The notes under the pieces: model-generated | What the model was told of the DNA's origin: nothing | The model's input: only the letters and a program-made list of their open reading frames with translations | The model's database searches: none | NCBI GenBank assembly: GCA_965204615.1 | Contig: OZ242000.1 | Coordinates: 3,223,913-3,287,912 of the forward strand | From: Acidimicrobiia bacterium | Lineage (GTDB): Bacteria; Actinomycetota; Acidimicrobiia; Spongiisociales; ZC4RG35 | Direction: 5' to 3' | DNA: 64,000 nucleotides | Made by a program: the position numbers and the translations under genes | Shown: piece by piece, positions 131-8,659 of the stretch | How positions within the stretch are numbered: position 1 is the stretch's first letter | Layout: every line of letters starts with the position of its first letter

Positions 131-1357
131 ATGATGCCCAATCTGACCTATGAACAAATCCGTGACGCTACTGCTGGTGAGGCGGTGGCTCTTAGATCGG
201 TGACGAGCCTGCAGCCCGCTGGGGGACGGGGTGACAAGGTGTTTCCTCCGACTTATGCGGTTGACTCTCGGGCTGAACATCGGTACGCAGTGGAAGAGCG
301 TCAGGTTGGAGACGAGGTAATGAGGACTGTGCTGTTGGATTCCGTCGCTTCGCAAGCTAACCGGGCGGAGCTCGCCTTGTTGGCCGGATGGGAGGACGGC
401 GAACTGGGTTTTCCGGTGGCGTACGTCGACTTCATGGCAGATGATGAACTCGCGGACATCGGGAAGCTCACCGTTCTGGAAGCGCCACATCGGATCGCTG
501 ATGCCATATTCCGGGACAGTCTTCTGGACGGGACTCTTTTCCGACTATCCAACATCGGAAGGGCGATCACCAATGCTCATTCCCGTGATGCGACCGCGCT
601 GTTTCGTTATTCCCCAACGGCGCTTCTTTTCGGCATGTGGGACTCGACCGGACCCAAGGGAGGCGGGGGATCGAAGTTCCAACGGGCATACGTCTCGGAG
701 ATCGTCGGTTTCAACGCAACGGTGGGCCGCAAAGTAGGTAGCCGTATCGATCCGTTGCAGATCGAACGGGACGCTGCCGTTGCTTTTCAGCACAGGGACC
801 CCGAGCAACGATGGACGTTGGACGAATCAGATGCAGCGCGAGACAAGAAAGGCAATCCCATAAAGGCCGGTGCCGATGGTCGGCCGGCGGAGATCAATCA
901 TGGCAACATCGCTCCCAGCATCAATACCTTGTCGGGCGGGGTAACCATCTCAGAAGCGACGCAGACCATCGTCATTTCTCTGGCTGCTCCCCGACGACTC
1001 CGCTTTGCTGGCCAGAGTCGAGCTGCCGAGGATGCCGCTCGTACCGCGATCGCCGCTTTGGGTGTCGCTGCGGTCGCATACCAGCACGAGATGGACTATG
1101 ACCTTCGGTCTCGCTGCTTGCTCGTCCCCCAGCATTCCCCTCGGCTAGAGGTTATTACGCGGGATGGGTCCGAACCCGAAGTTGTCGGAGTGGATCGAGC
1201 CACGTCCGCGGACTTGCTTCGCCAAGCCGCAGAGGAGGCTCAACAGGCAGGGCTGGGCTGGACAACCTCGGAGTTCCGACTGGAACCGGCGCCTAAATTG
1301 GTGCAGCTCATCAAACAGAGCCGTCGGGTGTCAGCCGACAAGCCTCTTTCGGGATAA
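131..1357 (+). CDS. Type I-U/I-G Cas7-like backbone protein (Csb1 family), tentative
   Basis: First gene of an operon that continues into cas5/6, cas3-HD, cas4-cas1 and cas2. Glycine-rich loop (STGPKGGGGSKFQ) typical of Cas7 RAMPs. Size of 408 aa fits Csb1. Assignment is by context and motif, not alignment. Confidence 0.45.
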   Translation: MMPNLTYEQIRDATAGEAVALRSVTSLQPAGGRGDKVFPPTYAVDSRAEHRYAVEERQVGDEVMRTVLLDSVASQANRAELALLAGWEDGELGFPVAYVDFMADDELADIGKLTVLEAPHRIADAIFRDSLLDGTLFRLSNIGRAITNAHSRDATALFRYSPTALLFGMWDSTGPKGGGGSKFQRAYVSEIVGFNATVGRKVGSRIDPLQIERDAAVAFQHRDPEQRWTLDESDAARDKKGNPIKAGADGRPAEINHGNIAPSINTLSGGVTISEATQTIVISLAAPRRLRFAGQSRAAEDAARTAIAALGVAAVAYQHEMDYDLRSRCLLVPQHSPRLEVITRDGSEPEVVGVDRATSADLLRQAAEEAQQAGLGWTTSEFRLEPAPKLVQLIKQSRRVSADKPLSG

Positions 1358-1360
1358 GCG

Positions 1361-3025
1361 ATGCTGGCTATTGAGGTCAGTTTTCTCACCGGACGTTTCG
1401 TGGCCGCATCCCACCATGACCGCGGCGCACCGGAGTGGCCTCCCCATCCGGCGCGGTTGTTCTCGGCTCTGGTGGCCACTTGGGCAGACGCCGACCAGCC
1501 CGGTCGTTCCGAAAGACAGGCGTTGGAGTGGTTGGAGTCTCAGTACTCGCCCTCAATCTACGCCTCGGACGCCACCCCGAGATCGCAGGCGACCCATTTC
1601 GTCCCGGTGAACGACACCCGGATCTTCTCGCAACGTTCATACGACAACAGAGCACGCCGAATCGAAGACCTTTTGGCCCAGATCGAAAAAGGACATTCCC
1701 GAGGGGAGTCCGCTCGGAAGATCCAAAGCCTGGAGGCCGAGGTGAAGAATCAACGGAACGTATCACAACTGGTGGCATCGGTTGGCAATACTCCCGTCAA
1801 GTCAGCGGTAGACATCTTGCCCCCAGGTTGGATATCTACCCATGACCACTTCCGAACCGGCCAGGCCCGCAACTATCCATCGGTGACACCCGACGACCCG
1901 CGGGTGGTCTACATTTGGGATGGCGACCTTTCCCACGACGGCATACATGTGCTGGATGGTTTATGCGCTCGGGTCACCCGCTTGGGGCATTCCTCTTCGT
2001 TGGTCTCTTTGCGAATAGTGACGGACCCTCCTTCACCTAATCACATACCTGGCTCCGGCGCCGATGTGCTGCGGTCTGTCAGGGCCGGACAACTCGTCGC
2101 CTTGGAACGAGAACATGCCAAACACAAGGGCAGCAGGCCTCACACTCTGCCTTTCACATCGGTTCGTTACCGCAAGGTCGCGCCTGCCCGCGCCGAGGCC
2201 CCGAGACCTAAGGCGGATACCACCGGCGAGTGGCTTGTCCTGTCTTTCATCCCACGATCGAGAGGGTTTCCTTCCACCAGGGCTGTGCAGATAGCCACCG
2301 CTTTGCGGGGAGCGGTGCTCAGCTATGCCAGCGATCCGATACCGGAGGGCCTGTCCGGACACCAGCCGCAGGGATCGCCGTCAACTCATCCCCATGTGGC
2401 TTTCCTCCCGCTGCCCTGGGTGGGGCACCAACACTCTGACGGACGATTGATGGGAGCGGCCATCGCCATGCCGGAGAGTCTCGATTCTGAATCGCAGCGC
2501 TCGTTGTTTCGGGCGGTAGGTAGATGGGAAGCCGCGCAGGAGCCGCTTGTCCTCACCCTCGGTCGGAGCGGAGTCCTGAGAATGGAACGAATCGTGGGGA
2601 CCACCACCCTGGTCACCCTCCGTCAGAGTCTCTGGAGCCGCCGATCCCGACGGTGGGTCTCCGCCACCCCGATTGCACTGCCTGCACACCCCGGTGAGCT
2701 CAGTTCCGGTACTGTCACCGCCCGGGCCAAGGCATGGGCGCGAGCCGAGCAGGCGGTGGTGGATTCGTGTCGGCACATCGGTTTGCCGGAGCCAGCCGAG
2801 GTGTCGGTCTCTCTCGCCCCTCTCCTGACCGGCGCCCGTCCCGCCCCCGCTTTCCCGTCCTTTCGCCAACGGGGACGGGGAGGCCGTCCTGTAGCTCGAC
2901 GTTTGATCCATGCCTCAGTCACCTTCGGGCAGGGGGTCTCAGGCCCGATGGTGCTAGGGGCGGGTCGCTACCTGGGGCTGGGGTTGATGCGACCAATTGC
3001 AGATCCGGAGTCGAATGATGAGTGA
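1361..3025 (+). CDS. Type I-U Cas5-Cas6 fusion (Csb2 family), tentative
   Basis: Starts 4 bp after the previous stop. N-terminus [39 protein letters not shown] resembles the Csb2/Cas5 N-terminal signature (EWPPSPxRLFxAL). Size of 554 aa fits Csb2. Confidence 0.5.
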
Positions 3026-6838: not shown

Positions 6839-8479
6839 ATGTCTGACGTACCAGCTCTGGTTCCAGTTCGGATGGTCAATGAGTTTGAGTACTGTCCGCG
6901 GCTTTTTTATCTTGAGTGGGTTCAATCTCGGTTCGTGGATAATCCCGATACCGTGGAGGGTCGTTATGTGCATCGGAAGGTCGATCCGGGGGGAGGTCGG
7001 ATCGCCGGACCGGAAGAGGATGACCCGGTGCGGAAGGCCCGGTCTGTGATGTTGGGGTCGGACCGTTTGGGGCTGATCGCCAAGGCGGACATAATCGAGG
7101 GAGGGAATGGCCGGGTGACTCCCGTTGAGGTCAAACGGGGCCGACCGCCCAAGCATGGTCCGGCATGGTCTCCCGAGCTCGTGCAACTGTGTGCGATCGG
7201 GCTGCTGCTCCGTGACAACGGGTACCAGTGCTCCGAGGGCGAGATTTACTTTGCGGAGACCCGCCAGCGGGTGACCATTCCTTTCGATGACGAACTGGTG
7301 GCGAAGACCCTCCGACTCGTGGAGGAGTTGCGGCATGTCGCGTCGGGACCGGACCCGCCTCCACCATTGGTCGACAGCCCGAAGTGCCCCCGTTGTTCCC
7401 TGGTGGGCATCTGCTTACCCGACGAGACCAACCTGCACACAAAGCGCTCCCTGAAGCGGCCCCGCCGGTTGGTGCCCCGCGATCCGTCCGCCCGCCCCTT
7501 GCATATCACCGAGCAGGGTGCGCGGATCGGCGTCAGGGGAGGTCGTGCCGTGGTCTCCAAGCACTACAAGGAAGTCGAATCGGTACGCATGATCGATGTC
7601 TCCCAGGTCTCGGTTTACGGCAACGTTCAACTGAGTTCCCAGTTCATGCGAGCGGCATTCATGCGGGAGATGCCGGTGTGCTGGTTCTCCTACGGTGGAT
7701 GGTTCCAAGGCATCGCCCATGGCCTGCCGTCGAAACATGTCGAACTGCGACGACGCCAAGTAGCCATAGCTGCTCAGGCGGGACTTCCGATCGCTCGACG
7801 GTTGGCCGAAGGAAAGATCCGCAATTCCCGCACCCTTCTTCGCAGAAACGCCAGACAGAATGTAGAGCGGGTCCTGGCACAACTCAACACTCTCGCCCAC
7901 CGGGCTGTATCTGCGCTATCCGTCGAAACCCTTCTCGGTCTGGAGGGAACCGCGGCCCGCCTCTACTTCTCCAAATTCGCCACCATGTTTAAGGACGACG
8001 ATCTCGGCACCTTTGACTTCCAGAGCAGGAACCGACGACCTCCAAGGGACCCGGTCAACTGCCTGCTGTCCTTCGGGTATTCGATGCTGGTCAAGGACTT
8101 CACGGCCACAGCCCTGGCGGTGGGCTTCGACCCATACCTCGGTGTCTACCATCACCCCAGATTCGGACAACCGGCCCTGGCCCTCGACCTGGCCGAGGAA
8201 TTCCGACCTCTCATAGCGGAATCGGTCGTCTTGACTCTCATCAACAACAACGAGATCAGCCGAAACAACTTCGTCATCCGGGCACAAGGGGCAGCGATGA
8301 CCAGCCAGGGACGAAGGACTTTCATCAAAGCCTACGAGCGCCGACTCGACCAAGAAGTGACACACCCCACTTACAAGTACCGGATCACCTACCGCAGAGT
8401 CTTCGAAGTCCAGGCGCGCATGCTCGGCGCCTACCTACTGGGGGAAATACCCGAATACGTACCCTTCATGACGAGGTAA
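6839..8479 (+). CDS. cas4-cas1: Cas4-Cas1 fusion protein
   Basis: N-terminal Cas4 features (EFEYCPRLFYLEW, C-terminal Cys cluster CPRCSLVGIC). C-terminal Cas1 region (GVYHHPRFGQPALALDLAEEFRPLIAE). Confidence 0.85.
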   Translation: MSDVPALVPVRMVNEFEYCPRLFYLEWVQSRFVDNPDTVEGRYVHRKVDPGGGRIAGPEEDDPVRKARSVMLGSDRLGLIAKADIIEGGNGRVTPVEVKRGRPPKHGPAWSPELVQLCAIGLLLRDNGYQCSEGEIYFAETRQRVTIPFDDELVAKTLRLVEELRHVASGPDPPPPLVDSPKCPRCSLVGICLPDETNLHTKRSLKRPRRLVPRDPSARPLHITEQGARIGVRGGRAVVSKHYKEVESVRMIDVSQVSVYGNVQLSSQFMRAAFMREMPVCWFSYGGWFQGIAHGLPSKHVELRRRQVAIAAQAGLPIARRLAEGKIRNSRTLLRRNARQNVERVLAQLNTLAHRAVSALSVETLLGLEGTAARLYFSKFATMFKDDDLGTFDFQSRNRRPPRDPVNCLLSFGYSMLVKDFTATALAVGFDPYLGVYHHPRFGQPALALDLAEEFRPLIAESVVLTLINNNEISRNNFVIRAQGAAMTSQGRRTFIKAYERRLDQEVTHPTYKYRITYRRVFEVQARMLGAYLLGEIPEYVPFMTR

Positions 8480-8659
8480 ATGATGGCCAGAGGAAGAAAG
8501 CGATACCTGGTAGCGTATGACATCAGACACCAAAAGCGTCTACGTCAAGTACACAAGACAATGAAGGCCTACGGGTGGGCCATGCAATACAGCGTTTTCA
8601 TATGCGATCTTGACTTCATAGAACTGGTCGAGATGCGCACCGACCTAGGAGGCTGCTGA
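8480..8659 (+). pseudogene. cas2: cas2 5' portion (54 native codons), truncated by IS insertion after position 8642
   Basis: MMARGRKRYLVAYDIRHQKRLRQVHKTMKAYGWAMQYSVFICDLD is a Cas2 N-terminal half. The ORF is only 59 aa. Its last codons and stop lie inside the IS terminal inverted repeat. Confidence 0.7.

Follow-up and report, generated by a model that had tools for sequence, protein, structure and literature searches.

A short Cas8g-like protein encoded next to Cas3 in a CRISPR-Cas locus of type I-G with a split cas2 gene from an Acidimicrobiia bacterium

Two described CRISPR-Cas systems of type I-G come closest to the locus analysed here. In Thioalkalivibrio sulfidiphilus, the system comprises Csx17/Cas8g, Cas7, Csb2 and Cas3 (PDB 8B2X; PMC9638904). 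Csx17 (720 amino acids (aa)) has two parts, an alpha/beta domain at its N-terminus and a Cas11-like helical bundle at its C-terminus, and Cas3 binds the Cascade complex through Cas8g (PMC9638904). In Bifidobacterium animalis, Csb1, Csb2 and the 39-kDa protein Csb3 co-purify with CRISPR RNA (crRNA) (bioRxiv 10.1101/2022.08.19.504415), and this type I-G system interferes in vivo (PMC9335239, PMC12915315). Here, we describe a type I-G cas operon and its CRISPR array in a stretch of 64,000 nucleotides (nt) from an Acidimicrobiia bacterium (contig OZ242000.1), hereafter the window. Unless a locus is named, coordinates are positions within the window, and those of open reading frames (ORFs) are as read from its sequence (Table 1). 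We suggest that a 313-aa protein encoded directly downstream of cas3 is likely to be a large subunit reduced to the N-terminal domain of Cas8g.

The six ORFs of the operon (131-8659) were all found where an initial annotation of this DNA had placed them. That annotation had called the operon type I-U/I-G-like, and curated hidden Markov models (HMMs) confirm each gene; the type I-G assignment is correct throughout. Cas7g matches TIGR02570 (75 bits versus a cut-off of 38), PF09617 (E 3e-51, 174 bits) and the PADLOC Cas7g profile (E 5e-45), while Csb2 matches TIGR02165 over its full length (306 bits versus a cut-off of 45, E 8e-91) and PADLOC Cas56g (E 7e-121). Initially, these two assignments had rested on a glycine-rich loop and a 13-residue motif, respectively; both are present, the loop as GPKGGGGSK in Cas7g and the motif at residues 25-37 of Csb2, and the assignments are now backed by significant HMM matches for both proteins. 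His517 of Csb2 is located in its C-terminal Cas6-like part. Cas3g (TIGR02621, 749 bits versus a cut-off of 400) has its helicase motifs in the N-terminal part and, as noticed previously, its HD domain at the C-terminus (TIGR01596, residues 724-850 of 917). The longest cas3g ORF (2997-5750, 917 aa) begins with a TTG at 2997; from the reading frames, the true start is likely the ATG at 3015, which overlaps the end of csb2. The reported fusion of cas4 to cas1 is likewise supported (NF049935, 765 bits versus a cut-off of 560), with Cas4 at residues 10-194 and Cas1 at residues 221-546. The NCBIfam cut-offs are thus far exceeded by Cas7g, Csb2, Cas3g and Cas4-Cas1, the 313-aa protein and the cas2 fragment being set aside here, and the PADLOC profiles agree with the NCBIfam identities across the whole operon. 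The Cas3g, Csb2, Cas7g and Cas4-Cas1 families are shared with the Thioalkalivibrio system by HMM, while Cas7 and Csb2 of the window are too diverged from the solved I-G chains to be matched by phmmer, searches of the PDB with either protein returning no chain. An exact-sequence look-up of Cas7g returned no record, and no sigma-70 consensus promoter was found upstream of its gene.

The 313-aa protein matches NF049934 (272 bits versus a cut-off of 65) over model positions 1-299 of 299. The full NCBIfam name of this model is "type I-G CRISPR-associated protein, Cas3-extension family". It also matches the PADLOC profile PDLC01514 (E 1e-58), which bears the name Cas8g and the description "CAS-I-U; effector_LS". 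A Pfam search of the protein gave no family. An exhaustive HMMER search for NF049934-type relatives gave 1084 representative clusters at E <= 0.001, with clusters defined at 50% identity, and among the 150 matches listed most members are ~300 aa long. Within the NF049934/PDLC01514 family, the 313-aa protein is an ordinary member from which no difference was found. A large subgroup of the family (proteins P0303-P0391) has ~375-390 aa instead of ~300 aa. A tblastn search of plasmids with the 313-aa protein matched nothing.

Structure prediction, which had been proposed for this protein, linked it to type I-G Cas8g. Using an AlphaFold2 model built on 39 homologues (predicted local distance difference test score 83.8, predicted TM-score 0.88), the sole significant Foldseek match in the PDB was the type I-G effector 8b2x (E 2.9e-5). 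The Cas8g coordinates in this entry are themselves an AlphaFold model docked into ~8 Å density (PMC9638904). Cas8a of type I-A (PDB 7R2K, 7TR6), an experimental cryo-EM chain from a system with separate Cas11 and Cas5 subunits, was also matched, with 7% sequence identity to the 313-aa protein. In total, 250 of the 313 residues align to the N-terminal part of Csx17/Cas8g. Because Csx17 has two domains and the alignment falls on the first, the 313-aa protein corresponds to the N-terminal domain only. In other words, the N-terminal alpha/beta Cas8-like domain is present, whereas the C-terminal Cas11-like helical bundle and the ~650-720 aa length of a full Cas8g are lacking; the Thioalkalivibrio large subunit is more than twice as long (720 versus 313 aa). 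At the level of sequence profiles, Csx17 was the top PDB match of a profile built from a wide range of family members (A2), although not a significant one (E 0.27); in this alignment, the N-terminal motif and a W-PLWERP motif follow each other in the family as they do in Csx17. A profile of close homologues (A1) gave a chance match only in the PDB sequence search.

To place the operon among its relatives, we used a sample of 80 loci (L001-L080) from a scan of species-representative genomes. Most are from metagenome-assembled genomes labelled Acidimicrobiia; other labels include Gammaproteobacteria, Chloroflexota, Latescibacterota, Binatia, Gemmatimonadota, Acidobacteriota, Spirochaetia and Thermodesulfobacteriota. 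In all 80 loci, cas3g immediately precedes the short cas8g, and 70 of them preserve the whole order cas7, csb2, cas3, short cas8g, the other ten being interrupted or cut by contig ends. The placement of Cas4-Cas1 and Cas2 varies. The effector order in B. animalis subsp. lactis (csb1, csb2, cas3, csb3) equals that of the window. It differs from the Csx17-type order, as listed for Mycobacterium innocens, of cas3, csx17, cas7, csb2. Thus, the gene order that had been described as non-canonical is the standard, conserved order of the short-Cas8g variant.

The same loci bear on the idea that a gene for a full-length Csx17/Cas8g lies just beyond the upstream edge of the window, with the 313-aa protein as a further factor. 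In the window, cas7 is preceded by only 130 nt, and reading from the edge, frames 1 and 2 meet their first stops at 46-48 and 71-73. However, none of the 80 related loci carries a recurrent large gene in the ~4 kb upstream of cas7, and clustering of their ORFs gave no recurrent ~700-aa family; a Csx17 gene was seen in none of them. The closest relatives (L004, L005, L019 and L074) have a divergent VWA/YfbK-like gene and no cas gene at this place, and a distant locus (L081), whose protein is 33% identical to that of the window, has the same six-gene layout with no extra cas gene. From this context, a Csx17 gene just outside the window is most improbable. Within the window, the initial observation that a ~700-aa Csx17/Cas8u2 is missing still stands, as none was found in the operon or among 10 of the 11 other ORFs of at least 500 aa. 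We therefore reject a hidden Csx17, upstream or elsewhere, based on the relatives' context and the ORF scan of the window.

Several observations connect the 313-aa protein to Cas3. The two genes share an ATGA overlap, as previously reported. Moreover, in three representative clusters (P0215, P0219 and P0223; 1338-1367 aa), Cas3g is followed by an NF049934 domain at its C-terminus in one polypeptide. The corresponding loci read cas7, csb2, cas3-fusion and contain no other large-subunit candidate. These fusions explain the NCBI name "Cas3-extension", and they argue for a physical partnership of the NF049934 domain with Cas3. By analogy, such a partnership would fit the binding of Cas3 to Cas8g in Thioalkalivibrio, a system with which the variant would share the link between Cas3 and the large subunit. 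The Cas3-fusion loci (L082, 4294-5046; L083, 530-1282) have a conserved 250-aa gene directly upstream of cas7 on the same strand with no Pfam match, which could be an extra cas component of the Cas3-fusion sub-variant.

The fusions are also what the main rival explanation starts from. According to this explanation, the 313-aa protein would belong to Cas3g as an accessory or extension domain, modulating or completing the helicase-nuclease, rather than to Cascade as a subunit, and Csb2 and Cas7 would read the protospacer adjacent motif (PAM) in a complex with no large subunit. The position of the fused domain at the Cas3g C-terminus, the ATGA coupling to cas3, the name of the family and the missing Cas11-like domain are all as expected if this were the case. 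However, because Cas8g of Thioalkalivibrio binds Cas3, fusions to Cas3 are just as compatible with a large subunit. The Cas8 fold of the 313-aa protein weakens the accessory-domain explanation further, as does the co-purification of B. animalis Csb3 with Csb1, Csb2 and crRNA, which was seen in the absence of Cas3. We consider it unlikely that the protein acts on Cas3g alone, and we favor the reduced large subunit.

The weight that the B. animalis experiments can carry depends on how Csb3 relates to the 313-aa protein. The B. animalis locus (L086), retrieved from gut metagenomes via a published csb3 primer, contains csb1, csb2 (545 aa), cas3 and csb3 (348 aa). Its cas3/csb3 junction is a 3-nt gap, as opposed to the ATGA overlap in the window, and its adaptation genes are upstream of the effector genes, whereas cas4-cas1 and cas2 are downstream of them in the window. 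Csb3 has no NCBIfam match, and so none to NF049934. In PADLOC, it matches PDLC01374, which is also named Cas8g, while the window protein matches PDLC01514 and not PDLC01374. BLASTP of Csb3 against the 313-aa protein was not significant (E 1.8). These results rule out that the 313-aa protein belongs to the Csb3 sequence family in the strict sense. With 38 clusters, versus 1084 for the NF049934 family, the Csb3 family is small, and most of it comes from Bifidobacterium; a profile search with distant NF049934-family members gave no Bifidobacterium protein and only the names "Cas3-extension family" or "hypothetical". Profile-profile comparison by hhalign, by contrast, aligned the Csb3 family with the NF049934 family over 244 columns, which is nearly full length (90% probability, E 1.5e-6), and with the shallower alignment A1 at 53% (E 1.4e-4); identity in these alignments is 11-17%. 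The models of Csb3 and of the window protein both match Csx17 and Cas8a first. Thus, the 313-aa protein is a remote homologue of Csb3 that shares its fold and, like Csb3, is encoded after cas3. The suggestion of a "Csb3-type or minimal large subunit" in the initial annotation therefore holds for the minimal large subunit, given the Cas8g profile PDLC01514, and for the Csb3 type at the level of the superfamily, but not of the sequence family. Positions mutated in Csb1 and Csb2 of B. animalis showed loose agreement only with the window proteins and were not used.

Table 1. Coordinates of the type I-G locus and adjoining features in the window.
Feature	Position	Strand	Basis or remarks
cas7g/csb1, backbone subunit	131..1357	+	408 aa; TIGR02570, PF09617, PADLOC Cas7g
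csb2 (cas5-cas6 fusion), presumed crRNA endonuclease	1361..3025	+	554 aa; TIGR02165, PADLOC Cas56g
cas3g, helicase N-terminal, HD nuclease C-terminal	3015..5750	+	TIGR02621, TIGR01596
Short cas8g, predicted N-terminal-domain-only large subunit	5747..6688	+	313 aa; NF049934 "Cas3-extension family"
cas4-cas1 fusion	6839..8479	+	546 aa; NF049935
cas2 5' fragment, native codons 1-56	8480..8648	+	PADLOC Cas2g, tblastn with relatives' Cas2
Inserted IS1182/IS5-like element, 3146 bp	8649..11794	-	terminal inverted repeats, CTAG duplication, transposase domains
cas2 3' fragment	11795..11929	+	tblastn with relatives' Cas2
Presumed CRISPR leader, ~175 nt	11930..12104	+	between cas2 stop and first repeat
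CRISPR array	12105..13109	+	14 repeats of 36 nt (CTCCGAGGGCCGATCTCGGCCCTCCTCCATTGCGGC), 13 spacers

Downstream of cas4-cas1, the initial annotation had ended the operon with cas2. The identity of the gene is correct, but the ORF concerned (8480-8659, 59 aa) is only its 5' part, which reads into an insertion sequence (IS) and stops at 8659; it matches PADLOC Cas2g (E 6e-19) at profile positions 3-53 of 96 only. In tblastn searches, the Cas2 proteins of relatives align to 8483-8644 and then again to 11795-11929, and the 3' fragment is 55-71% identical to the C-terminal parts of Cas2 in L001, L002, L004, L013, L019 and L074. The segments 8480-8644 and 11795-11929 join in frame to give a 99-aa Cas2. 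The element between them has a perfect terminal inverted repeat of 17 nt and is flanked by a CTAG target duplication (8645-8648 and 11795-11798). The two halves of its transposase, with DUF772 and DDE_Tnp_1_6, are split by an IS256-type element at ~9590-10983 (Transposase_mut, E 5e-114), which has inverted repeats of its own. There were, thus, two successive transposition events at cas2. Because the cas2 halves can be joined in frame and show no other damage, and because the CTAG duplication is intact, the insertion looks recent. Because the nested insertion splits cas2, spacer uptake by Cas4-Cas1 and Cas2 has probably been lost in this genome. Neither this disruption nor the CRISPR array, which lies outside its coordinates, was part of the initial annotation.

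The spacers of the array are 36-40 nt long except for the first of 50 nt, and the last two repeats are degenerate. The repeat can form a hairpin of 8 bp (-17.2 kcal/mol); Rfam searches with the repeats gave weak CRISPR-DR20 matches on the + strand, below threshold only. In the relatives L004, L015 and L074, arrays of 45-107 repeats are found in the same place, beginning ~170-230 nt past the cas2 stop on the same strand. No sigma-70 consensus was found in the presumed leader of the window. The repeats of the relatives have compensatory changes in the stem and a conserved tail, ATTGCGGC, that resembles the end of the B. animalis repeat, ATTGAGGG. The B. animalis repeat is of the same class as that of the window, with the tail CTTCATTGAGGG compared to CTCCATTGCGGC. 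On the cas coding strand, the B. animalis repeat (L088, 6-112) reads ATCTCC...CATTGAGGG, while the "WT RNA" and the T7-driven array of the B. animalis preprint (bioRxiv 10.1101/2022.08.19.504415) are the reverse complement, CCCUCAAUGAAG...; the strand chosen may explain why cleavage in that preprint falls at an unusual position, 5 nt from the 5' end. In the window, the 50-nt leader-proximal spacer (12141-12190) overlaps a perfect 12-nt tandem duplication, GGCATGCTCCTG, at 12138-12165. Viral contigs contained no exact match to three spacers next to the leader, and no self-targets were found in the window or in the relatives' loci.

A cas2 gene split by an IS that is itself split by a second IS, an array of 14 repeats compared to 45-107 in L004, L015 and L074, and three spacers with no protospacer match together raise the question of whether the locus is in decay and entirely inactive. 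Yet the interference genes are intact, the other five cas ORFs being full length relative to their HMMs, and interference does not need Cas2. Moreover, the insertion looks recent, with cas2 halves that still join in frame and an intact CTAG duplication. We give such a remnant a small but real chance.

We propose that the locus probably encodes a standard type I-G pathway, with the 313-aa protein as a large subunit that is reduced to the Cas8 N-terminal domain and anchors Cas3. In this model, the array would be transcribed from the leader, and the Cas6-like C-terminal domain of Csb2 would cut the repeat beside the 8-bp hairpin, probably leaving an 8-nt 5' handle (AUUGCGGC). Cas7g subunits would then polymerise along the guide. 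The 313-aa protein would take the place of the large subunit; in the solved I-G effector, the N-terminal domain of that subunit touches the Cas7 subunits that come first. As a second role, the 313-aa protein would hold Cas3g on the complex; this is suggested because the two genes are translationally coupled, always adjacent and sometimes fused. Finally, Cas3g would unwind and degrade the target. In such a pathway, interference would be retained in the genes, while adaptation would probably be lost through the split of cas2. The association of the 313-aa protein with Cas7, Csb2 and crRNA, PAM recognition and Cas3 recruitment would be expected by analogy with the co-purification of Csb3 and with the binding of Cas3 by Cas8g in Thioalkalivibrio.

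Several points weigh against this model. We found no biochemically tested NF049934 member in the literature, and experiments connect to the family only through a remote homologue, for which the hhalign alignments show 11-17% identity. The NCBI curators named the family after Cas3 and not after Cas8. Cas7 and Csb2 of the window match no PDB chain, and the variant is far from the solved I-G complex. In addition, the 313-aa protein has no domain for the Cas11-like belly, and the window shows only 130 nt upstream of cas7.

Concerning the wider distribution, the labels of the genomes with related loci span more than ten phyla, and the short Cas8g proteins there are 49-69% identical to that of the window. 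Genome names such as Candidatus Spongiisociaceae and Poriferisocius suggest an association with sponges, and the distribution suggests frequent horizontal transfer of short-Cas8g type I-G operons within the sponge community, with a sampling bias being possible. Elsewhere in the window, a gene on the - strand (26073-30224) encodes a 1383-aa NACHT protein that resembles the antiphage protein EruA (NF058535, 826 bits, which is below the curated cut-off of 1000); it may be a second defence gene ~13 kb from the CRISPR locus. Large repeat proteins are encoded at 20971-22905 (+), 59689-61875 (-), 40586-42736 (-) and 15690-17033 (-); they include two TolB-like beta-propeller proteins, one delta-60 repeat protein and one SLH-domain protein.

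Type I-G, its short-Cas8g variant, the NF049934 model and the notion of a large subunit that is short are all already known, and the window locus is a routine case, partly disabled, of a variant already covered by annotation pipelines. In the searchable literature, we found neither the structural equation of NF049934 with the Csx17 N-terminal domain nor its remote homology to Csb3 stated, and we regard both as incremental additions. They tie the commonest short Cas8g family, for which the NCBI name is only "Cas3-extension", to the N-terminal domain of Csx17 by structure and to Csb3 by profile comparison, and they outline a compact four-protein type I effector of Cas7, Csb2, short Cas8g and Cas3. 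We tentatively speculate, while regarding it as doubtful, that the NF049934 family, with its more than 1000 clusters, defines a type I-G effector that lacks the Cas11-like belly and in which the Cas8g N-terminal domain is permanently coupled to Cas3, as a separate or a fused protein. If so, target binding, R-loop stabilisation and nuclease loading would be organised unlike in the solved Csx17-type complex, and the family would mark the point in Cas8g evolution where the Cas11-like domain was acquired or lost. The natural fusions to Cas3 could also be of interest for genome-editing tools and for the study of Cascade complexes that function with no Cas11-like element.

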